DNA of 32,000 nucleotides from a virus: the IMG/VR virus record IMGVR_UViG_3300045988_122038, positions 13,749 through 45,748 of that record; one strand, given 5' to 3'. A program made the position numbers and the translations under genes. Under the pieces are notes generated by a model. It was not told the DNA's origin and made no database searches. It saw nothing but the letters and a program-made list of their open reading frames with translations. Below are positions 1,059 through 32,000 of this stretch, one piece after another. How positions within the stretch are numbered: the stretch's first letter is position 1; every line of letters starts with the position of its first letter.

Positions 1059-1526
1059 ATGAGTAAAACGGATTATGAAGAATATGTAGATGTTCAGGTG
1101 GATACATTAATTAAAAAACTTGAAATGTTCAAGATCTATGAAAGAAAGTTTAAATCGTTGGATGGAATCTTAAAGGATTTGGAGGTTCGCAAAAAAGAAT
1201 TTTCAGATCCAAAGTCACCATCATTTGAACAAAGACTAGATTCAAAGAAAAACAAGGACATTACAAATGATGTTCTTGTAAAGTTTATTTCAAAAGAAAA
1301 AACACTTGAAGATGATAAGAATCTAATCTTCGGAAAGATGAGAGAAATTGAAACAATTATTGACCTTATTCCGGATGATGATATTCGTTTATATATGAAA
1401 CGTCATTATATCAACGGAGAGTCATTTGAGAAGCTTTCAGGAGAAAAGTTCTGTAGCAGAATGAAAATGTATTACGCAATGAAAAAAGAGCTTAAAAAGC
1501 TCGTTATAGGGGATTTAAGTAAATAA
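1059..1526 (+). CDS. sigma-70 region-4-like HTH protein, candidate late-gene activator (RinA/ArpU/DUF1492-like by position)
   Basis: The C-terminal segment IPDDDIRLYMKRHYINGESFEKLSGEKFCSRMKMYYAMKKELKKL fits the region-4 HTH pattern. SD 'aggag' lies 6 nt upstream. Confidence 0.45.
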   Translation: MSKTDYEEYVDVQVDTLIKKLEMFKIYERKFKSLDGILKDLEVRKKEFSDPKSPSFEQRLDSKKNKDITNDVLVKFISKEKTLEDDKNLIFGKMREIETIIDLIPDDDIRLYMKRHYINGESFEKLSGEKFCSRMKMYYAMKKELKKLVIGDLSK

Positions 1527-3729: not shown

Positions 3730-4299
3730 TTAAAATGGAAATTCAAACTCTTCAAGCATTTCTGTAGGTGCTGCTTTCTTCTTCTTTTTTGGTGCAGCTT
3801 TTTCAATGCTCATTTTTTCAACTTTTCCATCATTGTATATATAGCTTTCTTGTAATTTGTTTCTACTAAACAAGTCTATAGTTTTAGAAGTTGTGTTATA
3901 AGTTGCTAGCAAGCTTTTTGATCCAGGTTTACAGATCTTAAAAAGATCCTTGTTTAAAATATCAACATAGCATTTATAAATTTTGAAGAAATAACAGATA
4001 TCTTTTATTTCTTGTATATCTGGTATACATAACTCTTTTTTTGCTTCTGTATTGTAATATATTTGAATATCATAATTGAAAAGCTTGTCAAGATCATGAG
4101 CGACGAACAACCTTAAGTCATTTGTTTGAGCTGCTGCATACATGCATTTATTATGATCAAACTTAAAACCATGATCTTTTAAAACTTTTTCAGTTGAAGC
4201 GCTGGGAGTTCCTAACGCTTCAACATAAATGTGCGGTTTTTTCCGCTCATTTGTAACATAATAATTAAAATGGTTTCGTTCACGCTTCCACATTGTCAT
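3730..4299 (-). CDS. hypothetical protein (189 aa) with a Lys-rich linker and an acidic aromatic C-terminal tip ...EMLEEFEFPF
   Basis: SD AGGAGG inside the upstream gene (translational coupling). The C-terminus resembles SSB / T7 gp2.5-type acidic tails that end in Phe. Confidence 0.7.
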   Translation of the reverse strand: MTMWKRERNHFNYYVTNERKKPHIYVEALGTPSASTEKVLKDHGFKFDHNKCMYAAAQTNDLRLFVAHDLDKLFNYDIQIYYNTEAKKELCIPDIQEIKDICYFFKIYKCYVDILNKDLFKICKPGSKSLLATYNTTSKTIDLFSRNKLQESYIYNDGKVEKMSIEKAAPKKKKKAAPTEMLEEFEFPF

Positions 4300-4510
4300 T
4301 TTTAATACCTCCTAAAATATCCAAGGTATATAAAGTATTTGCAAGTAGCCAAAGTTCACGCGGTTCAAGCATCCAAGCAATGGTATCTAAACCATAGTTA
4401 AGATCATATAAACCGTTTAAATGTTTTGTAATTGTGTAAGGCTTGCAGCTAGATCCATTTAGTCGATCTAGTTTTTTTTCTGTAAACTCAATATATTCTT
4501 TATTATTCAT
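4280..4510 (-). CDS. hypothetical protein (76 aa)
   Basis: ATG at 4510 lies 8 nt after GGAGG. The track start at 4525 lacks an SD. Overlaps the downstream gene by 20 nt. Confidence 0.65.
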   Translation of the reverse strand: MNNKEYIEFTEKKLDRLNGSSCKPYTITKHLNGLYDLNYGLDTIAWMLEPRELWLLANTLYTLDILGGIKNDNVEA

Positions 4511-4512
4511 TT

Positions 4513-4785
4513 TTAAAACCTCCATTCATTATCTTTAAAAATAGTTCTAACAAGTGCATAAAGTTCGTTGCTTACTTGTTTAGAATCAACTAAAAGTTGA
4601 TCATAATAAACGCGTATAACTTTTTCACTTTCTATATATGCAAGATCATAAAAAAATGAATTAATATGATCCACTAAACATTCATATAAAAAGTCATATA
4701 CGACAAAATTACCAGAAATAAGATCATTCATATATGATCTAATTCTTGCATATTTATGCAATAATTTAATTTCAAAAAGTTCCAT
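4513..4785 (-). CDS. hypothetical protein (90 aa)
   Basis: SD AGGAGG 7 nt upstream of ATG 4785. Confidence 0.65.
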   Translation of the reverse strand: MELFEIKLLHKYARIRSYMNDLISGNFVVYDFLYECLVDHINSFFYDLAYIESEKVIRVYYDQLLVDSKQVSNELYALVRTIFKDNEWRF

Positions 4786-4802
4786 TGTTTAACCTCCTAC
4801 AA

Positions 4803-4925
4803 TTAATAAATAAGTGGTAGTAAAATATTTAAAAGGCCCAATATTATACCTATAATCAATGTAGATGTGCACGCTGCTAAATACAATTTTAAAAATGCAA
4901 GTATGAGCACCTTGACGGCGCTCAT
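4803..4925 (-). CDS. possible 40-aa hydrophobic membrane peptide, not in ORF track
   Basis: Translation MSAVKVLILAFLKLYLAACTSTLIIGIILGLLNILLPLIY. It fills the 160-nt gap between two operon genes, but there is no clear SD. Confidence 0.35.
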   Translation of the reverse strand: MSAVKVLILAFLKLYLAACTSTLIIGIILGLLNILLPLIY

Positions 4926-4945
4926 CTTGTCAAGATCTTTGCGTG

Positions 4946-5428
4946 TTAACATACTTTTTTACCTTTTGAAACAACTTTTTTAATTTCTCTAAAAATTAAA
5001 TGTGTGAGTTTTTCTTCCGCTTGGCGTTCCGTGAATTTACTTTTTTCGCTTTCGCTTTCTTCCAAAATTATCGCAAGATCTTCAACGGCGCTTCTATTGT
5101 AGTAGTAACAAGTATCTAGAACGCTTGGGAGTCCTTGACACCATTCAAAAAATAAATTCTCAATACTCATGTTTCTTTTGTCGTATTTAACTTTTTCATC
5201 ATAGAAACAATCATAAATAGCGTAAGCATATACGCTGAACATGTCGATTTGTCTTCCGTGTTTTGTATCTTCTTCAAACTTTTCAATATATGCGTATTTA
5301 TCGTAACCGGTAAAATCTACATTATCACATACATACTTTTTAATATTTTTTACAGCTTCTTTTGAATAAGTCTTTAACATTTTCTTTTTTAACCCGTCTA
5401 TGGTAGAATAGAAAAGCAATATATACAA
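4946..5428 (-). CDS. hypothetical protein (160 aa from TTG; 144 aa if from the internal ATG at 5380)
   Basis: AGGAGG (reverse complement of 5440-5445) lies 11 nt upstream of the TTG at 5428. A 9-bp hairpin (5391-5399 / 5428-5436) spans the start region. Confidence 0.6.
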   Translation of the reverse strand: MYILLFYSTIDGLKKKMLKTYSKEAVKNIKKYVCDNVDFTGYDKYAYIEKFEEDTKHGRQIDMFSVYAYAIYDCFYDEKVKYDKRNMSIENLFFEWCQGLPSVLDTCYYYNRSAVEDLAIILEESESEKSKFTERQAEEKLTHLIFREIKKVVSKGKKVC

Positions 5429-6175: not shown

Positions 6176-6399
6176 ATGTGGTCTTGCACCAGATAAAGGA
6201 AGACAAGTAGCACGCTTGAACGCATGGGACGGGTGCATATTATCCAATGTATGTTGGAGCTGTTGGAGTTTGCTATATATAAGAACGCGTACGCACGTTC
6301 TATTAATAGAGCTATGGCCATGGTATGAAACAACGCTTTCAACAAGTCATGTTGAAACATCTTTCAACACAATAATAAATATGTGAATATCATATGACT

Positions 6400-6600
6400 G
6401 AAGCCGTTAACGGGGCGGTGTGGTGGTAGCTGCATAGGTTTGATTTTTAACCCTGAAAGCGCCCAGGGCTGGGATCAGATCAGCATAGACCCCCCTATCT
6501 TTCAAAAGTTTTTTGTGTTTTGGGGAACGGCGTGGGGAGTTTAAAAAAACCGGGTCATGAGTGCATGAGAGGGGGTAAAATCTGAATTTCTTCATTTTGT
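6400..6600. other. candidate cos-site / structured-RNA region (GC-rich core of the ORF-less gap)
   Basis: G and C runs (GGGGCGGTGTGGTGG at 6412, C6 at 6490-6495, GGGGAACGGCGTGGGGAG at 6522, G5 at 6571-6575) lie directly upstream of HNH-TerS-TerL. The cleavage position cannot be read from the sequence. Confidence 0.25.
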
Positions 6601-6611
6601 ACAGTGTACAA
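6597..6611. promoter_or_regulatory. perfect 7-1-7 palindrome TTGTACAgTGTACAA (operator/activator site), copy 1
   Basis: The 19-mer ATTTTGTACAGTGTACAAA (6594-6612) recurs exactly at 30291-30309. In both copies a TATTnT hexamer lies 13 nt downstream (here 6625-6630). Confidence 0.55.
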
Positions 6612-6705
6612 AGAAAAACCGTGATATTCTGTAGTCGTGAAGATTGGAAAACATCTTCTAGAACAAACAAGGTAGTTCTTGGATTGTTTCATTTTAGTGC
6701 CCGTT

Positions 6706-6740
6706 GAAAAAGACCTGTGGAAACATGGGTCTTTTTCATA
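6706..6740. terminator. bidirectional terminator-like hairpin upstream of the HNH gene
   Basis: AAAAAGACC ... GGTCTTTTT with a 12-nt loop. Confidence 0.35.
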
Positions 6741-6828
6741 TCACTGCATTCAAAGTATTTACTGTTAGTTTTTGTCGTCCTTTAAATCTGTTAACTGTAG
6801 TTATGGTCAAAACTTTGAATGTAGCGAT

Positions 6829-7215
6829 ATGAAAAAATATTATGGTTCAGAAGCAACAAAAACAGGTGCTAGAAATTATGCTAGAAAATTTTACTCAAGC
6901 AAGGCTTGGGAAAAGAAAAGCAAAGCGTATAGAAAGGCACATCCACTTTGTGAAAGATGTTTGAAAAAAGGTATCTATACCAGGTCGACTTGTGTGCATC
7001 ACAAAACACACATTGACCAGGACAACTATAGAGATGTACACATTCTATTTGGCGATTCCAATTTGGAAGCGTTGTGTGACTTATGTCATGCTGAAGAACA
7101 TTCAAAACGTAAACCATCTTTTGAATTTGATGAAAAAGGAATGCTTATAGGATGTGGAAGGGAGGATGATGAATGCAAAAAGGAGCATGGAAAAAAAGAA
7201 TCAATTCACAACTAG
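6829..7215 (+). CDS. phage-associated HNH endonuclease (packaging accessory)
   Basis: Motifs WEKKSKAYRKAHPLCERC, VHHKTHI, NLEALCDLCHAEEH. First ATG in frame; sits upstream of the terminase genes. Confidence 0.85.
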   Translation: MKKYYGSEATKTGARNYARKFYSSKAWEKKSKAYRKAHPLCERCLKKGIYTRSTCVHHKTHIDQDNYRDVHILFGDSNLEALCDLCHAEEHSKRKPSFEFDEKGMLIGCGREDDECKKEHGKKESIHN

Positions 7216-7547
7216 AGAATTTAGGCACATTTTCTCCTGAATATTCGGTTGCGGTTGATTCACTTGCAGATGCATTGGCCCAATATGATTCAACAATGAA
7301 GCAATGGAGAGATTCAAGTAAAGCAAATGGCTACAAATCACTACAGATGGTTGTTGAATATACCAATAAAGGCGGTGCAACGAATTTATCACGCTCACCA
7401 TACTACATTATTACCGTTCAATTACGTGATCAGATCATGAAGTACTGCAAAGAACTTGGCTTGTCACCTACTTCACTTTCAAAAACAACAGAAGTATCCG
7501 GAAAAAAAGGTGATGAATTGGATGAGTTCATGAGCAGATTTAAATGA
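7173..7547 (+). CDS. terS: terminase small subunit (P27-family-like)
   Basis: About 120 aa, immediately upstream of and ATGA-coupled to TerL. SD 'gggagga'. The N-terminal GTFSPEYSVAVDSLADA pattern is typical of this family. Confidence 0.7.
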   Translation: MQKGAWKKRINSQLENLGTFSPEYSVAVDSLADALAQYDSTMKQWRDSSKANGYKSLQMVVEYTNKGGATNLSRSPYYIITVQLRDQIMKYCKELGLSPTSLSKTTEVSGKKGDELDEFMSRFK

Positions 7548-9202
7548 AATATTTAGACATTTATAAAGAACGTATTAAATCGGGTGAAGATGTAGTCGGT
7601 AAGTGGATAAAGCTTAATCTTCAATATGTTGAAAGAGGTTTAGCAAATGGAGATTTCTTCTATGATGAGAAAAAAGCGGAAATGCATATAGCGTTTATTG
7701 AAACGTTTTGTCATCACGTAGAAGGAAAAACAACAAAAGTGAAGCTTGAGCCTTGGCAAAAATACTATATTGCGTGCATATTCGGACTTGTTGATAAGAA
7801 TGGAAAAAGGCAGTTTCGTGAAATACCTACGGTCATGGGCCGAAAACAAGGAAAATCATTTCTTTGTGCAGGTATTGAACTTGATGTTGGGTTTACATCT
7901 GATGAAGCAGGTATGCAGATATACAATATAGCGCCAAAGTTAAAACAAGCACAGATCATTTACAATGTTCTGTATCAAATGATGGAACACTCTAAAGCGT
8001 TGAGTCAAAGAGTGAAAAAACGTAGAACAGATATCTACATGAAACAGAACAACTGTAGATGGGAGCCAATTGCCTTTGCATCTAAGAAATCAGACGGATT
8101 TAACCCATATTTGACAATCTTTGATGAGTTTGCAGCCTGGGAAGGTGAAGCTGGTATGAAAATGTACAACGTTATGTTGTCGGCAGGTGGTGCAAGACCT
8201 GATCCACTTTATATTCCTGTAAGTACCGCAAACTATATTGATGAAGGATTATATGATGAATTATTTGTTCGTGGAACATCTGTTTTACTTGGTACGTCTG
8301 ATGAAAAACAAATGTTGCCTTTCTTTTATATGATTGATGATATTCAAAAATGGGATGATCCTATTGAATTAAGAAAAGCAATGCCAAACCTTGGAATATC
8401 GGTTTCTTATGAATATTTGCAGAATGAAATTTTAAAAGCACATAGCTCACCGACATATAAGGCGGAGTTTATAACAAAATATGCGAATATCAAACAGAAT
8501 TCAACGGAAGCGTTATTTAGTGCAGAAGATATCAACAAAGTTAAAGGTGAAGAACTTAGATTTGAAGATTTTGCACATACATATGCAGTTGGTGGAATCG
8601 ATTTGTCGCAAACAACCGATTTAACAGCCGCATCTGTTGTTATACGAATTCAAGAACAGGATTACATATTTACTCATTTTTGGCTTCCAACATTAAAAAT
8701 CAAGGAGCTAGAAGAAAGAGACAAAATACCGTATACAAGATTTATTCAATTGGGATATTTAAGTCCAAGTGGGGAAAACTTTGTACGGTATGAAGATGTT
8801 ACGGAATGGTTTGAAATGCTACGTAAGAAATACAAGATTTATTGCGTTGTCGTCGGATATGACCGCTATTCGGCACAGTATCTTGTGGATGATATGAAGA
8901 AATATGGATACAAGATGGATGATGTAATTCAGGGAACTAACCTTACACCGGTTATTAATGAATTTACGGGATATGTAAGAGATGGATTTGTTCATACAGG
9001 AACAAATGGATTATTACAAGCACATATGTCTAGTGTGGCATTAAAGAAAGTTGCGGAGGACAATCGTGTCCGCATGATTAAAACTGATCCAAGAAAACAT
9101 ATTGATGGATATGCATCTGTTATTGATGCATATACAGTAAGACAAAAATGGTGGGATACATTTAAATACCGCCTTGAAAACAAGAAAAGGAAGGTGAATT
9201 AG
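7544..9202 (+). CDS. terL: terminase large subunit
   Basis: 552 aa. Walker A-like VMGRKQGKS and Walker B-like LTIFDEFA, with a C-terminal nuclease region. Position is as expected. Confidence 0.95.
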   Translation: MKYLDIYKERIKSGEDVVGKWIKLNLQYVERGLANGDFFYDEKKAEMHIAFIETFCHHVEGKTTKVKLEPWQKYYIACIFGLVDKNGKRQFREIPTVMGRKQGKSFLCAGIELDVGFTSDEAGMQIYNIAPKLKQAQIIYNVLYQMMEHSKALSQRVKKRRTDIYMKQNNCRWEPIAFASKKSDGFNPYLTIFDEFAAWEGEAGMKMYNVMLSAGGARPDPLYIPVSTANYIDEGLYDELFVRGTSVLLGTSDEKQMLPFFYMIDDIQKWDDPIELRKAMPNLGISVSYEYLQNEILKAHSSPTYKAEFITKYANIKQNSTEALFSAEDINKVKGEELRFEDFAHTYAVGGIDLSQTTDLTAASVVIRIQEQDYIFTHFWLPTLKIKELEERDKIPYTRFIQLGYLSPSGENFVRYEDVTEWFEMLRKKYKIYCVVVGYDRYSAQYLVDDMKKYGYKMDDVIQGTNLTPVINEFTGYVRDGFVHTGTNGLLQAHMSSVALKKVAEDNRVRMIKTDPRKHIDGYASVIDAYTVRQKWWDTFKYRLENKKRKVN

Positions 9203-27593: not shown

Positions 27594-27827
27594 GTGGTTT
27601 ATATTAACAAAGCTAACAGATTAAAAGAAATACGTCCTAATGATGCATTAATACTTATCAAATCTGTTGGATTAAGAAAGAAATATGAACAGGTTTTGAT
27701 TATGAGATACGTGTATGATATGTCATGCACGGAAATTGCAGATGCATTATGTGTGGAAGTACAAACCATAAGGAACAGAGTATGCAAAGCAAGAAAAATG
27801 TTCGATAAATATGTGAGCAATCTATAA
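27594..27827 (+). CDS. 77-aa sigma-70 region-4-only HTH protein
   Basis: The segment YEQVLIMRYVYDMSCTEIADALCVEVQTIRNRVCKARKMFDKYV fits the region 4.2 pattern. GTG start after 'aaggcggtg'. Confidence 0.6.
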   Translation: MVYINKANRLKEIRPNDALILIKSVGLRKKYEQVLIMRYVYDMSCTEIADALCVEVQTIRNRVCKARKMFDKYVSNL

Positions 27828-27846
27828 TGGTTGCTCATTTTATTTT
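27814..27846 (+). terminator. intrinsic terminator ending the long structural operon
   Basis: TGAGCAA / TTGCTCA stem, 10-nt loop containing the stop codon, then TTTTATTTT. Confidence 0.65.
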
Positions 27847-27925
27847 GGGTATTTTATGAGTATTATTCGAGTATTAAATTATTTATTACGTAAACATATA
27901 ATTAAATCGTAAAGAGGTGGTTGAA

Positions 27926-28366
27926 ATGTATAACAATTATAATCCAGCACAAGCACGAATTGACAGTTTGATGCAGCAAAGACAAATGATAGATCAACAA
28001 ATTCAGCAAGTACAACAGTATGCAAATATTCCACCTATCAACATTAATAATCAGATTACACCACAACAACAAGGCAATTTTGATTTTAATGGAAAATGGG
28101 TGAACGATGAGCAGGAAGCTAGAAACTTTGCGAATGCAAATTTACCAACGATTTTATTTGATAACAATAAATCTATTTTTTATATGAAATCTTTAGATGG
28201 AACATTTAAAAAGTTCAAATTTGAAGAAATTACGGAAGATAATTCTAACAGTATAGAAAATCGTGTAAATGGAATCGAAAAGAAATTAGATGATTTGATA
28301 TGTGCATTAAGCAAACCACCAAAACAAGCTAATGAGCAACAAAAGAAAGGAGCACAAACAAAATGA
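27926..28366 (+). CDS. Gln/Asn-rich protein (146 aa)
   Basis: The ATG at 27926 lies 8 nt after 'agaggtgg'. N-terminus QQRQMIDQQIQQVQQ...TPQQQ. Confidence 0.6.
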   Translation: MYNNYNPAQARIDSLMQQRQMIDQQIQQVQQYANIPPININNQITPQQQGNFDFNGKWVNDEQEARNFANANLPTILFDNNKSIFYMKSLDGTFKKFKFEEITEDNSNSIENRVNGIEKKLDDLICALSKPPKQANEQQKKGAQTK

Positions 28367-28605
28367 ATCCTTTAAAAAGTATTATGGGTAATATGAATCC
28401 AATGAATATGATGAATATGGGAAATCCCCAACAAATGTTAATGAATATGTTGTCGCAGAAAAATCCACAAGCATTTCAACAATTTCAAATGCTTATGAAC
28501 AGTGGTCAAAATCCACAAATGATTTTAAATCAGATGATGGGTAATTTAAATCCACAACAAAAGCAACAACTGCAACAAATGGCAAAACAGTTTGGAATCA
28601 GGTAA
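28363..28605 (+). CDS. Met/Asn/Gln/Pro-rich low-complexity protein (80 aa)
   Basis: ATGA-coupled to the upstream gene. Recurrent NPQ/MN motifs. Confidence 0.6.
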   Translation: MNPLKSIMGNMNPMNMMNMGNPQQMLMNMLSQKNPQAFQQFQMLMNSGQNPQMILNQMMGNLNPQQKQQLQQMAKQFGIR

Positions 28606-28646
28606 CAACGGCTAAACCGTTATTATAGAAAGAAAGGAGAACATAT

Positions 28647-29279
28647 ATGATGGAAAATGGAATGGGAATTCAACCAACTTACAACTTAGCTGAAAGAGAT
28701 GACGGCTTTGGAAACGGCGGAGGTTGGTGGATTTGGATCTTGCTAATCTTCGTATTATTTGGATATGGAGGATATGGAGGATATGGCAACGGAAACCTAG
28801 CAAATGATTCTTTATTAAATGAAGAATTCATTAAACGAGATATTTTTAACACAAACACAAATGTATCTCAAACAGGTTGCCAAACTCAACGAGACGTACT
28901 AGAAAGTCGCTATACTAATCAGTTAGGACTTCAAAACTTGCAAGCTCAGCAACAAGAATGTTGCTGCAACACTCAACGAGCAATTGACAATGTAAATGCT
29001 CAAAGTTTCAAAAATACTTGTGACATTACAACAGCAATTCATTCAGAAGGTGAAGCAACACGTGCGTTGATCAATGCAAACACTATGCAAGAATTACGTG
29101 ATCGTTTAGCTGATCGTGATCGTGATTTATTAACGGCTAATTTCCAATTAAGCCAACAGGCACAATCTGCAAACATCATTAGTACTTTGCAACCAACACC
29201 AAAACCAGCTTACATTACATGTTCACCATATTACGCTTATAACAACGGATGTGGATGTAATGGCTACAACAACTTATAA
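28647..29279 (+). CDS. membrane protein: Gly/Tyr-flanked TM (YjcZ-like), Gln-rich coiled coil, Cys-rich C-terminus
   Basis: SD AAAGGAG. Segments GNGGGWWIWILLIFVLFGYGGYGGYG, ECCCN and CSPYYAYNNGCGCNGYNNL. Confidence 0.65.
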   Translation: MMENGMGIQPTYNLAERDDGFGNGGGWWIWILLIFVLFGYGGYGGYGNGNLANDSLLNEEFIKRDIFNTNTNVSQTGCQTQRDVLESRYTNQLGLQNLQAQQQECCCNTQRAIDNVNAQSFKNTCDITTAIHSEGEATRALINANTMQELRDRLADRDRDLLTANFQLSQQAQSANIISTLQPTPKPAYITCSPYYAYNNGCGCNGYNNL

Positions 29280-29320
29280 TCTAGCACATGTGTGATTAGG
29301 CAATTGCCTTTGGATTTAAT

Positions 29321-29348
29321 GGGATAGTCGAAAGGCTATCCCTATTTT
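29321..29348 (+). terminator. hairpin with a GAAA tetraloop and a short T tract
   Basis: GGGATAGTC-GAAA-GGCTATCCC followed by TATTTTA. Confidence 0.45.
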
Positions 29349-29366
29349 AATAGGAGGATAAAAGAA

Positions 29367-29786
29367 ATGATTAATAGTATTGCTACGGCTGTTCAGACAG
29401 TCGATAATTCAAATAATGTATTATTTCCAACGGACAGAGTAAGGACGAAATCTTGTCAATGTGCATGTAAAGGTTGGCTTGCTCATGATCTAGGAAGTGG
29501 ATTGTTTACACTAACAAAGCCAGGTATCTATGAAGTAACTTATACTGCGGATATTACGAGTGCAGCGGCAGGACAAGCTTCTTTAGTGCTTGAACTAAAC
29601 GGAGAAGCAATTGGTGGAACACAATCTATTTATACTGTTGCAACTGCAAGTGCGTATGGAAATGTAAGCGGAGACACTCTAATTCAAGTTCCATGCGGTG
29701 CATCTTATACAATTGCATTAGCAAATAACAGTGGTTTAGACTTAACAGTCCAAAACGCAAACATCGTTATTAAGAAGATTGCGTAG
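29367..29786 (+). CDS. BclA C-terminal-domain-like (C1q/TNF-like jelly-roll) protein, 139 aa, no collagen region
   Basis: The pattern FTLTKPGIYEVTYTADITSAAAGQASLVLELNGEAIGGT ... ANIVIKKIA parallels my recollection of the B. anthracis BclA C-terminal domain (FVISETGFYKITV...IQVNGVPVPGT...IIIEKVA). Confidence 0.55.
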   Translation: MINSIATAVQTVDNSNNVLFPTDRVRTKSCQCACKGWLAHDLGSGLFTLTKPGIYEVTYTADITSAAAGQASLVLELNGEAIGGTQSIYTVATASAYGNVSGDTLIQVPCGASYTIALANNSGLDLTVQNANIVIKKIA

Positions 29787-29795
29787 GTGAAAAAT

Positions 29796-30269
29796 ATGCA
29801 TAAAGCAATGGAAGTTAATGAGAAGATAATGCATGAGTCAGTAAACATGTTAGAGAAATATGGATATGCAGAATCTTATTTCCATGCATTATCTCAAGCT
29901 TTAGATAATATCAAAGACATTGAAACTATAGAAGCAATGAGAAATAAATATCAAATTGAGATAGGAAAAGATGGAGCTTCAACTGTAGCTCGATTAAAAG
30001 AAGATAATGGTGGATATAATATTCATGATCCAGAAACAGAAGATATTGTTTATAAGCTTGCAGAACATTTGAAAAAATATAAAGCGTTCAAAGAAGAATA
30101 TACGCGTACAAAAGGTGATATGGATTTAGAAAAGTATCATCGTGAATTAGATAAGACTATGAAATGTATGCAACAAATCGTAACTATGATTCATGAATGC
30201 GTTGATTCAGATGAGGAAAAAACAATGATTAAGACACATATTCGAGACATGTTTAATATGTATCAATAA
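29796..30269 (+). CDS. hypothetical helical protein (157 aa)
   Basis: The ATG at 29796 lies 8 nt after AGGTG. The track start is a GTG at 29787. Confidence 0.6.
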   Translation: MHKAMEVNEKIMHESVNMLEKYGYAESYFHALSQALDNIKDIETIEAMRNKYQIEIGKDGASTVARLKEDNGGYNIHDPETEDIVYKLAEHLKKYKAFKEEYTRTKGDMDLEKYHRELDKTMKCMQQIVTMIHECVDSDEEKTMIKTHIRDMFNMYQ

Positions 30270-30295
30270 GGCCGTTAAATACGGTCTTTTATTTT
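30270..30295 (+). terminator. intrinsic terminator after the cassette
   Basis: GGCCGT / ACGGTC stem (one G-U pair), 5-nt loop, then TTTTATTTT. Confidence 0.55.
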
Positions 30296-30308
30296 GTACA
30301 GTGTACAA
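30294..30308. promoter_or_regulatory. perfect palindrome TTGTACAgTGTACAA, copy 2, upstream of the holin gene
   Basis: Exact 19-mer shared with 6594-6612. TATTAT at 30322-30327 has the same 13-nt spacing. Confidence 0.55.
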
Positions 30309-30348
30309 ACGATTTAAATACTATTATTAGGATAGGAGGTATTTGTAA

Positions 30349-30570
30349 ATGAAAAAATATAGTAAAGAATGGTGGATTCAATATGGCTATTATGCAAGTA
30401 TCAGAGCATTAAAGACGATTGCTCAAACTGCTGTTGGTGTTATTGGAGCATCTGCATTATTGGAAGCCGTTGATTGGCGAGTTGTAATTTCGTCAGCGTT
30501 TTTGTCAGGCATCGTCTCGTTGCTGACTAGTATTGGCGGATTACCTGAAATTAGTGTACCGGAGGAATAA
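30349..30570 (+). CDS. holin (two-TM, LL-H / phi-LC3-like)
   Basis: 73 aa. Segments RALKTIAQTAVGVIGA and SAFLSGIVSLLTSIGGLPE. SD AGGAGG. Upstream of the amidase gene. Confidence 0.8.
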   Translation: MKKYSKEWWIQYGYYASIRALKTIAQTAVGVIGASALLEAVDWRVVISSAFLSGIVSLLTSIGGLPEISVPEE

Positions 30571-30572
30571 TA

Positions 30573-30686
30573 ATGAATGATGAAGAAAAAGTAGTAGATT
30601 ATGAGAATCTATCAGAAGAAGCAAAAGAAGAATTAAGCAATGGCAAGGAAGAAGGTGTAGATGAAGAATGTCATATTCCGGATTAG
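30573..30686 (+). CDS. possible 37-aa acidic peptide between holin and endolysin, not in ORF track
   Basis: SD GGAGGA 6 nt upstream. Translation MNDEEKVVDYENLSEEAKEELSNGKEEGVDEECHIPD. Overlaps the endolysin start by 19 nt. Confidence 0.4.
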   Translation: MNDEEKVVDYENLSEEAKEELSNGKEEGVDEECHIPD

Positions 30687-31744
30687 CAACATATTGTAAC
30701 AGAACATCACAACATTATGATGGTCGTTTTGGATATAAGGTTTGTAAAATCACTCCACACTACATGGCTGCGGCATGGAGTGGTAAACAATGTGCAGATT
30801 ATTTTGCACGAAATACTCGTCAAGCATCTTCCAATTATTGTATTGGAATTAATGGAGACATTGCATGCAGTGTTGATGAAGAAAATGCTGCATGGACAAG
30901 TTCAAATTGGTTGAATGATTCTCAATCAATTACAATTGAATGTGGAAACATTAATAACGCAACTGGAGAAATGACGCAAGCTACTTGGGATAGCTTGGTG
31001 AATCTATGTGTTGATATTTGTAAACGATATGGATTTAGATTGAACTATACAGGAAATTCTAGCGGATCATTGACTATGCACAAAATGTTTGCGGCTACAT
31101 CATGCCCTGGAGCATGGTTGGAAGCACGTATGCCACAATTGGCTAATGAAGTAAATGCAAAGTTAGATGGAAAGGTTGAAACACCAAAACCTACAACTCC
31201 AAGTGGAGAAAAATATTCAGTTAATTTACCTATCTGTACAAACACATTGAGTGTGAATTGCTACGGAACTTCTACAGTTAAAAAAGGTGATTGGTCAGGT
31301 GTCATTGGTAGAGTAATTAAAGGAACAAAATATCCATATCGTGTTGATCGTAATGGAGTAGCGATTGGATGGACTAATGATGCTGGTATTGATACAGACC
31401 CTCATGTGCCAGTTGGCGCCACACAGTCTAGCGCAGAAGCTATCGACCAAATTTTGCATGAAGGTAGCTATGTTACATCTGTACATATGAAAATTGGTAA
31501 TCAAGGCTTGAAAAAGATTGGTGATGATTTATGCTGCTACTTGTCTAAATTAGGCGGTTGGTTTCCTATTCGTATGGTAGATAAAGTACCAAATTCAGAT
31601 GGATATAATGACAATGTACTGCATACCACAAATGCAGTAGTCTACGTATCTAGAATCAGAGTCGATGCAGTGAATGTTCAAAAGAATATTGTCAAGATTG
31701 GTGGTGTTTGGGTTGATCCAACACCGTTAACAGAAATTGAATAA
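30668..31744 (+). CDS. endolysin: N-acetylmuramoyl-L-alanine amidase (Amidase_2/PGRP-type) plus C-terminal wall-binding region
   Basis: Segments CKITPHYMAA, ASSNYCIGINGDI, ENAAWTSSNWLNDSQSITIECGN and SCPG. Last phage gene. Confidence 0.9.
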   Translation: MSYSGLATYCNRTSQHYDGRFGYKVCKITPHYMAAAWSGKQCADYFARNTRQASSNYCIGINGDIACSVDEENAAWTSSNWLNDSQSITIECGNINNATGEMTQATWDSLVNLCVDICKRYGFRLNYTGNSSGSLTMHKMFAATSCPGAWLEARMPQLANEVNAKLDGKVETPKPTTPSGEKYSVNLPICTNTLSVNCYGTSTVKKGDWSGVIGRVIKGTKYPYRVDRNGVAIGWTNDAGIDTDPHVPVGATQSSAEAIDQILHEGSYVTSVHMKIGNQGLKKIGDDLCCYLSKLGGWFPIRMVDKVPNSDGYNDNVLHTTNAVVYVSRIRVDAVNVQKNIVKIGGVWVDPTPLTEIE

Positions 31745-31946: not shown

Positions 31947-32000
31947 GGTCCAGTGGTGTAGTGGTTAACATGCCTCCCTGTCACGGAGGAGATCGTGGGT
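31947..32000 (+). tRNA. tRNA-Asp (anticodon GTC), 5' part; truncated by the window end
   Basis: GGTCCAG-TG-GTGT-AGTGGTTA-ACAT-G-CCTCC-CTGTCAC-GGAGG-AGATC-GTGGG-T folds as acceptor, D arm, anticodon arm and the start of the T arm. Close to the Bacillus tRNA-Asp sequence as I remember it. Confidence 0.9.

Follow-up and report, generated by a model that had tools for sequence, protein, structure and literature searches.

A palindromic element at two putative late promoters may link packaging and lysis in a cos-type siphovirus prophage

The stretch of DNA analysed here, referred to as the window, comprises 32,000 nucleotides (nt) of the IMG/VR virus record IMGVR_UViG_3300045988_122038. It derives from a low-GC cos-type siphovirus prophage, whose nearest genomic relative lies in a Solobacterium metagenome-assembled genome (MAG). 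The genes for an HNH endonuclease (6829-7215, + strand), TerS (7173-7547, +) and TerL (7544-9202, +) are the first of a structural late operon that runs to about 27827, and farther along lie the genes for a holin (30349-30570, +; Pfam Phage_r1t_holin) and an endolysin, an N-acetylmuramoyl-L-alanine amidase (30668-31744, +). Upstream of both gene sets stands the same 19-mer, ATTTTGTACAGTGTACAAA, with exact + strand copies at 6594-6612 and 30291-30309 that are separated by 23.7 kb, and no third copy in the window. The HNH gene, whose true start is the ATG at 6829, begins 217 nt past the first copy, and the holin ATG follows the second by 39 nt. With a probability of about 0.65, the comparisons described below suggest that these are two copies of one late promoter with a palindromic operator in the place of the −35 element, for which a DUF1492 protein encoded at 1059-1526 is the likeliest activator.

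An initial annotation of this DNA had reported the repeat, and both copies are reproduced at the positions it gave. It had also described a perfect palindrome of 15 base pairs (bp) with a 7-1-7 structure; the perfection stands, while the true length is 17 bp, TTTGTACA-G-TGTACAAA (8-1-8), placed at 6596-6612 around G6604 and at 30293-30309 around G30301. Each copy is followed by a −10-like hexamer, TATTCT at 6625-6630 and TATTAT at 30322-30327. The distance of 13 nt quoted earlier applies when counting from the 15-bp core and becomes 12 nt from the 19-mer; by either count it is equal in the two copies, and the dyad centre lies 21 nt before the start of the hexamer in both, as had been proposed. 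A chance origin was judged very unlikely, a view that the numbers bear out: 0.03 matches are expected for the 19-mer, and with TATNNT present at 0.8% of window positions an equal spacing would arise by chance in about 1% of cases. The window holds three perfect 8-1-8 palindromes where about one is expected, two of them being the ATTTTGTACAGTGTACAAA sites. It also holds three exact 19-mer repeats including ATTTTGTACAGTGTACAAA, and the two remaining ones stem from a pair of tandem paralogous genes at 2.1-2.9 kb. From dyad to hexamer the two copies have unrelated spacers (gaaaaaccgtga versus cgatttaaatac), so that only dyad and hexamer are common to both copies and the repeat is not a simple segmental duplication.

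Some further occurrences of related sequence were observed. The heptamer TTGTACA is enriched across the window (18 observed versus 8.3 expected). The tandem paralogous open reading frames (ORFs) at 2120-2470 and 2491-2916 share exact 17-19-mers and hold two of the three TTGTACAA palindromes found elsewhere in the window. In relatives, three tandem 24-bp iterons, CTGTCCAATGTACAAAAGACAAAT, lie within the Phg_2220_C replication gene (L138:4730-4800 and L140:2860-2930) and probably represent a replication origin. The TGTACAA within these iterons looks like a late-operator half-site, probably by coincidence.

At the terminase side the hexamer is part of an extended −10, TGaTATTCT (6622-6630, +). 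Seven nt past it lies the predicted transcription start, G6637 (+), with a conserved hairpin directly after, and relative to this start the palindrome would span about −41 to −25. No TTGACA-like hexamer is present 16-18 nt upstream of this −10, and a sigma-70 scan calls no promoter. The site thus has a −10 and lacks a usable −35, an arrangement kept in seven lineages. Besides the window these are L193, L195, L197, L207, L238 and L239, which were reached by way of HNH homologs (62-75% identity) without use of the motif and are 64-70% identical in nucleotide sequence to the window or to one another over alignable regions. In all of them a minus-strand cluster is followed by a long gap with the cos block and then by HNH-TerS-TerL. 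TATnnT is present in 7/7 and TGATATnnTGTA is kept in five; a TG one base upstream of the hexamer occurs in 6/7 (not in L239), and the putative +1, set off from the hexamer by six nucleotides, is a G in six of the seven lineages and an A in L207.

The element that occupies the position 21 nt upstream of the hexamer is, in its sequence, lineage-specific. That of the window is symmetric at 8 of 8 positions, those of L193 (TTTGGACA-G-TGTACGAA) and L238 (TTTGGAAA-T-TTTTCACA) at 6 of 8. L239 carries TCGCA-A-TGCGA, written TCGCAATGCGA (6 of 8, the inner five perfect), L195 has GCCCA-A-TGGGC, written GCCCAATGGGC (5 of 8, again with the inner five perfect), and L197 has GTCGCA-A-TCGGAC (4 of 8); L207 shows none (1 of 8). 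Excess dyad symmetry at a fixed centre is seen in six of the seven lineages. Measured against the background of each locus, the Fisher combined p is 1.6e-7 for the seven lineages and 5.6e-5 without the window. An inner CA-N-TG is common to the perfect sites.

Within the clade of the window, which counts about 50 close relatives in IMG/VR, 39 unique terminase-side sequences were retrieved through the regulator protein and not through the motif. Among them, 6576-6690 is nearly invariant and 6380-6575 highly variable. All exact matches to the 18-mer (n=105) fall within a terminase-side or holin-side context. As decisive proof, conservation within the clade was rejected, since clade diversity is low and the first scan had selected for the exact motif. 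Looking for the dyad upstream of terminase and holin genes in related phages, as the initial annotation had proposed, shows it to be near-invariant in the clade, with its geometry kept in diverged lineages.

In the mosaic genomes of phages a short stretch of common sequence can flag the junction of two modules, which is why the repeat might be read as a non-functional remnant of recombination or duplication. We give this explanation almost no credence: the flanks as well as the spacers of the two copies are unrelated, the geometry is kept in lineages about 30% diverged, and the near-invariant block sits beside a hypervariable region.

The terminase-side copy also lies close to the physical ends of the genome. 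Illumina adapter is fused to the contig ends as ...TTGGGGAA|adapter (corresponding to 6527) and adapter|GTTTAAAAAAA (corresponding to 6539) in contigs L051, L071, L034, L186 and L239, and the contigs of L034 and of the independent lineage L239 begin at the same cos-end base. Between these mapped ends, which lie 57 nt upstream of the dyad, is an 11-nt gap, CGGCGTGGGGA (6528-6538), the cos cleavage region; it suggests a 3′ overhang that was removed by end repair. The surrounding cos block, GGGGAACGGCG(T/A)GGGGAGTTTAAA, is conserved across lineages. Between cos and promoter, a hypervariable segment at 6558-6573 occurs as CATGAGTGCATGAG, CATGCGCGTACGAG, CATGGGTGTGTGAC and others. Phages that differ here have regulators that are 93-97% identical, and the stretch around the segment is conserved; the segment could be a terminase-specificity (cosB-like) region.

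Such proximity raises the question of whether the terminase-side dyad itself is a cosB-like packaging signal bound by TerS, with the holin copy being incidental. The dyad lies about 60-75 bp on the terminase side of the cleavage site, and lambda cosB has an equivalent position relative to cos. By hand count, however, the left end and the dyad centre are about 65 nt apart in the window, with about 30 nt more in L193, so that the distance from cos to dyad varies between lineages while that from dyad to −10 is fixed. TerS is moreover similar across lineages with unrelated elements, and the second copy, 23.7 kb away, has its −10 at the same spacing, an arrangement before the holin that three lineages share. 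This makes a packaging signal highly improbable.

The holin-side copy directly follows an intrinsic terminator (30268-30288, +), which is found in 51/51 clade sequences, in L209 and, with a different sequence, in L211-213. In these 51 flank-anchored clade sequences the 15-bp core is changed in two singletons only. The hexamer TATTAT (30322-30327, +) lacks a TG extension and has the variants TATCAT, TACTAT and TAGTAT, in which only positions 3 and 4 vary and T1, A2, A5 and T6 are kept. Over all sites, variation is confined to positions 3-5 with T1, A2 and T6 invariant, which fits a true −10. The predicted start, A30334 (+), is the first base of the Shine-Dalgarno sequence (SD) AGGAGG (30334-30339). 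The initial annotation had raised this as a caveat, and it is a real one; yet the 6 nt between −10 and AGGAGG are kept alike in the window, L209 and L211, which suggests that the very short leader of about 15 nt may be deliberate.

The complete design, namely terminator, element, 12 nt, TAnnAT, 6 nt and AGGAGG, recurs in L209 and L211-213. L209 has the exact 19-mer with the hexamer TACTAT. L211-213, whose tape-measure gene has about 68% nucleotide identity to that of L193 and whose holin is 78% identical to that of the window, carry the element ATTTTGGACAGTGTACAAT with TAGTAT and a spacer unrelated to the window's. In the JGI relative (L206/L207), the holin directly follows the tail genes, without a terminator and without a promoter copy, which fits the classical single-promoter layout. 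In a set of 25 species genomes with distant holin homologs, the Solobacterium MAG alone keeps the dyad, and the others have no intergenic region before the holin. The L195-type palindrome has terminase-side copies only, in three IMG/VR contigs whose lysis regions lie outside the sequence examined. Scans of IMG/VR and the JGI metagenomes for the G-variant element gave chance matches only, and so did the scan for the L239-type palindrome. A divergent promoter was ruled out, with no −10-like hexamer at the minus-strand mirror position of either copy.

Why should the lysis genes have a promoter of their own? In the structural region at 6.8-26.7 kb, terminators give no signal above chance, and three strong + strand terminators lie within 26.5-30.4 kb. 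The first, a 10-bp stem with a T-run at 27813-27838, ends the structural operon and is kept in L209 and L211; another is located at 29321-29342, and the third is the one before the holin-side copy. Between them lies an accessory ('moron'-like) cassette (27858-30269, +, with genes from 27917), which encodes a BclA_C-domain protein (29367-29786) and coiled-coil proteins and has its own sigmaA-like promoter (TTAAAT at 27874-27879, 17 nt, TATAAT at 27897-27902, +). Its layout is also found in L209 and L211, and in the JGI relative the equivalent genes come after the holin. Since this terminator-bounded, self-promoted cassette parts the lysis genes from the structural operon, a second late promoter would be needed. 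The initial annotation had included neither the cassette nor the terminator upstream of the holin copy, nor the terminator-containing leader at the terminase copy that is described further below.

Two direct 8-nt repeats, GAGTATTA, at 27858-27865 and 27869-27876 (11 nt apart), overlap the −35 of the cassette promoter. They stand directly downstream of the gene that closes the structural operon, past its terminator, and are kept in L209 and L211. This gene (27594-27827, +) encodes a 77-aa protein resembling sigma-70 region 4 (Pfam Sigma70_r4_2, 35.9 bits), for which the repeats may be an operator.

This 77-aa protein and the one encoded at 1059-1526 (+) had both been put forward as candidate regulators, and the comparisons favour the latter. 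It has 155 aa with a C-terminal helix-turn-helix, and residues 65-144 match Pfam PF07374 (DUF1492) at 22.7 bits (E = 1.1e-4), a small margin above the cut-off of 21.5. A close homolog also carries PF07374 in precomputed data, and the protein falls into PHROG 36, 'transcriptional regulator'. The N-terminal part of about 100 aa looks coiled-coil-like, its sequence-profile matches in the PDB amounting to coiled-coil noise only, which would fit a dimer. L195, L197 and L207 encode full-length homologs at the corresponding place in the genome, which have 13-23% identity to the protein of the window and C-terminal helices that vary along with the elements. The regulator of L209 (P0005), on the other hand, is 75% identical, has the same C-terminal helix and goes with the same 19-mer. 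Element and C-terminal helix diverge together across lineages, and the DUF1492 protein is likely to bind the dyad.

The 77-aa protein is a poor candidate because it is encoded by a late gene and because its helix-turn-helix is almost unchanged in a homolog from the JGI relative (61% identity) despite the unrelated element there. Its target may rather be the cassette promoter next to it.

That the dyad is bound by some protein other than the DUF1492 one, be it the 77-aa protein, an early phage product that lacks annotation or a regulator of the host, nevertheless deserves consideration. Elements of the −35 type are what region 4 of sigma recognises, and TTGTACA is similar to TTGACA; most of the early ORFs are without annotation, and the case for the DUF1492 protein is an indirect one. 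On the opposite side, the 77-aa gene ends the very operon that copy 1 would drive and so cannot trigger it, and the JGI phage that has a near-identical helix-turn-helix possesses no holin promoter. A conserved host factor would sit poorly with an element that is lineage-specific among closely related backbones, and the ORFs scanned yielded no further DNA-binding domain. We consider another binder unlikely. An operator of CI was ruled out, since in relatives neither the immunity (cI/cro) region nor the other early DNA contains the dyad.

These observations can be combined into a mechanism. The 17-bp operator, at about −33 from the predicted start, would occupy the place of the −35 upstream of a −10 of the host sigmaA type. 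A phage activator, likely the DUF1492 protein, would bind it as a dimer and recruit or stabilise RNA polymerase at promoters without a usable −35. Copy 1, set about 60 nt in from the left cos end, would drive HNH-TerS-TerL and the structural genes via a conserved leader. Transcription of the structural operon would stop at the terminator at 27813-27838, the self-promoted cassette (27.9-30.3 kb) would come next, and copy 2, right after the cassette terminator, would restart activator-dependent transcription of holin and endolysin. The earlier idea that one dyad-binding regulator ties packaging to lysis gains support, as the geometry is kept across lineages at both sites.

The leader between the terminase-side promoter and the HNH gene has three parts. 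Its 5′-terminal hairpin (6639-6658, +; GAAGAU...AUCUUC) starts at +1/+2 in seven lineages when the sequences are folded one by one, with compensatory changes at stem positions 2, 3, 4, 7 and 8 and no broken pairs. It is followed by an intrinsic-terminator-like hairpin (6707-6736, +), AAAAA-GACCUGUG-GAAA-CAUGGGUC-UUUUU, of which an equivalent with a U-run, ending at about +85 to +105, is present in 5/5 lineages folded. Finally, a long-range stem pairs 6737-6756 with 6811-6832 (+) and encloses the HNH start codon at 6829. An equivalent long stem with a different sequence occurs in L195, L197 and L207 and is absent in L193 (4/5 lineages folded). The HNH gene has no obvious SD. This three-part design recurs where the leader sequences cannot be aligned, and a search of the leader against Rfam returned nothing meaningful at gathering or E-value thresholds.

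A strong terminator about 70-100 nt past the predicted start in all five folded lineages brings to mind lambda pR′-tR′, where a late promoter is likewise followed by an intrinsic terminator within about 100-200 nt and by a very long operon starting near cos. The dyad-bound factor might then work like lambda Q: at a basal promoter with an extended −10 it would join RNA polymerase and carry it past the leader terminator by antitermination, instead of activating initiation. The TG-extended −10 could give basal initiation independent of an activator at the terminase side, and the 77-aa protein has a weak sub-threshold match to Phage_antitermQ. That match (PF06530) reaches 20.8 bits against a cut-off of 26, with phrog_79 at E = 1.4e-5, and sigma-70 region 4 matches better, so that no Q-family protein above threshold is seen here. 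Nor was a −10-like pause element (TAnnnT), as expected of sigma-dependent pausing, found from +1 to +25 in the leaders of the window and L193. The holin copy has neither the TG extension nor a downstream terminator. Furthermore, the second promoter after an internal terminator, present in three lineages, implies that late complexes do stop at terminators, contrary to what a terminator-resistant polymerase would do. A mechanism of the Q type is therefore quite improbable.

A more speculative combination goes beyond activation at the two promoters. In this proposal, the three-part leader would be a new cis-regulatory RNA module of cos/HNH phages, and the DUF1492 dimer, acting as a surrogate for sigma region 4, would also license readthrough of the terminator. 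Doubtful as this is, it would put the genes for the cutting of cos DNA under a lock with two keys, initiation and antitermination, of which the lysis copy would need the first only.

How does the activator-dependent promoter pair compare with described systems? Small phage helix-turn-helix proteins of the Ltr type are products of the last part of the early region, are specific for their own site and switch on a promoter upstream of the terminase, and thereby the genes for packaging, morphogenesis and lysis. The window phage resembles these in that its candidate regulator carries DUF1492 and that it is of the cos/HNH type. A DUF1492 regulator has been reported to activate its cognate terS promoter in reporter fusions, and in cross-reactivity tests RinA, LtrC and ArpU were each active on their own terS promoter only (PMC3753634). 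LtrB correlates with cos/HNH phages (PMC5601072). Known Ltr sites consist of three to four direct repeats (7 nt or 18 bp) that cover −107 to −42 and directly follow the ltr gene, and a single late promoter serves the whole late cluster, lysis included (PMC3753634, PMC13123087). For the LtrB (DUF1492) branch, a description of the operator sequence was not found in the cited Ltr literature.

There are four departures from this pattern, three of which count against our interpretation. In place of upstream direct repeats there is one 17-bp palindrome over the −35. The regulator gene, which in known systems adjoins the site and sits just upstream of terS, is here on the early side but 5.3 kb away, separated from HNH/terS by about 12 ORFs (those of the minus-strand cluster among them) and the cos site, and no binding repeats are found directly after 1526. 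A second promoter copy serves the lysis cassette. In addition, the terminator lies inside the leader, in contrast to its place upstream of the promoter in known systems.

Other observations weigh in the same direction. The AlphaFold2 model of the regulator is of low confidence (predicted local distance difference test score, pLDDT, of 66), and a Foldseek search of this model against the PDB gave no match at E < 1. Two 7-nt repeats in tandem, TGTACAG|TGTACAA, are an equally good reading of the dyad. The site of L197 is only weakly symmetric and that of L207 not at all; symmetry is also imperfect in L193 and L211, so that the perfect palindrome is possibly clade-specific. Outside the clade of the window, no genome could be viewed at both sites together. 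At the holin, start and SD coincide as described above, and at the terminase side a strong conserved terminator separates copy 1 from the HNH gene, which a simple activator model leaves unexplained.

Palindromic activator sites at several promoters do have precedents in unrelated phages. Mu C/Mor and P2 Ogr/P4 Delta act at several late promoters per genome that share a dyad-symmetric activator site and have a recognisable −10 but no functional −35. The site of the Mu C/Mor dimer overlaps the −35 region; activator sites are centred at about −43.5 in Mu and about −55 in P2, in contrast to about −33 here, and the proteins belong to unrelated families from phages of Gram-negative hosts. At T4 middle promoters the MotA box at about −30 replaces the −35 and is combined with an extended −10, which resembles the arrangement proposed here of an activator box in the −35 place and a −10 that is strong or extended. 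The box bound by MotA is asymmetric, however, and MotA needs the co-activator AsiA, which remodels sigma region 4; homologs of these two proteins were not seen here. In function, the system would be an Ltr-type late switch, one that departs from the described Ltr systems in operator, gene place, promoter number and terminator.

With regard to sampling, the GenBank phages gave no match by megablast with either 19-mer region and none by tblastn with the 1059-1526 regulator, and their best TerL match has 48% identity only. A few additional features of the window and its relatives should be mentioned. About 200 nt past the endolysin gene, a partial tRNA gene (Rfam; 31947-32000) is cut by the window end, and relatives assembled as phage genomes have an integrase gene after the endolysin, which together point to an integrated prophage with attR at the tRNA gene. 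The minus-strand ORF cluster between the early genes and cos (3730-5428) has no Pfam or PHROG match, and the equivalent cluster of relatives contains the anti-restriction gene ArdA. In the tail-fibre region of L209 (ENA contig NODE_377, 1212-2255), an RVT_1 reverse-transcriptase gene stands beside one for a DUF6273 protein; this pair looks like a diversity-generating retroelement, and no reverse transcriptase was found among the window ORFs scanned.

What do these observations mean for this group of phages? Late activators of the Ltr super-family set the timing of packaging and lysis in phages whose hosts are Gram-positive, and this timing also governs when host or island DNA is transduced. 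For the LtrB branch, the comparisons lead us to propose an operator: its centre lies 21 nt ahead of the −10, and it is a palindrome that differs by lineage and has CA-N-TG as its inner part. Regulator/operator pairs from several lineages could be of use in specificity studies and as orthogonal switches. The conserved leader terminator before HNH and terminase hints at a further regulatory layer. Finally, the locus would be an example of genome architecture adapting, in which a duplicated promoter keeps lysis under the same regulator despite the intervening terminator-bounded cassette.

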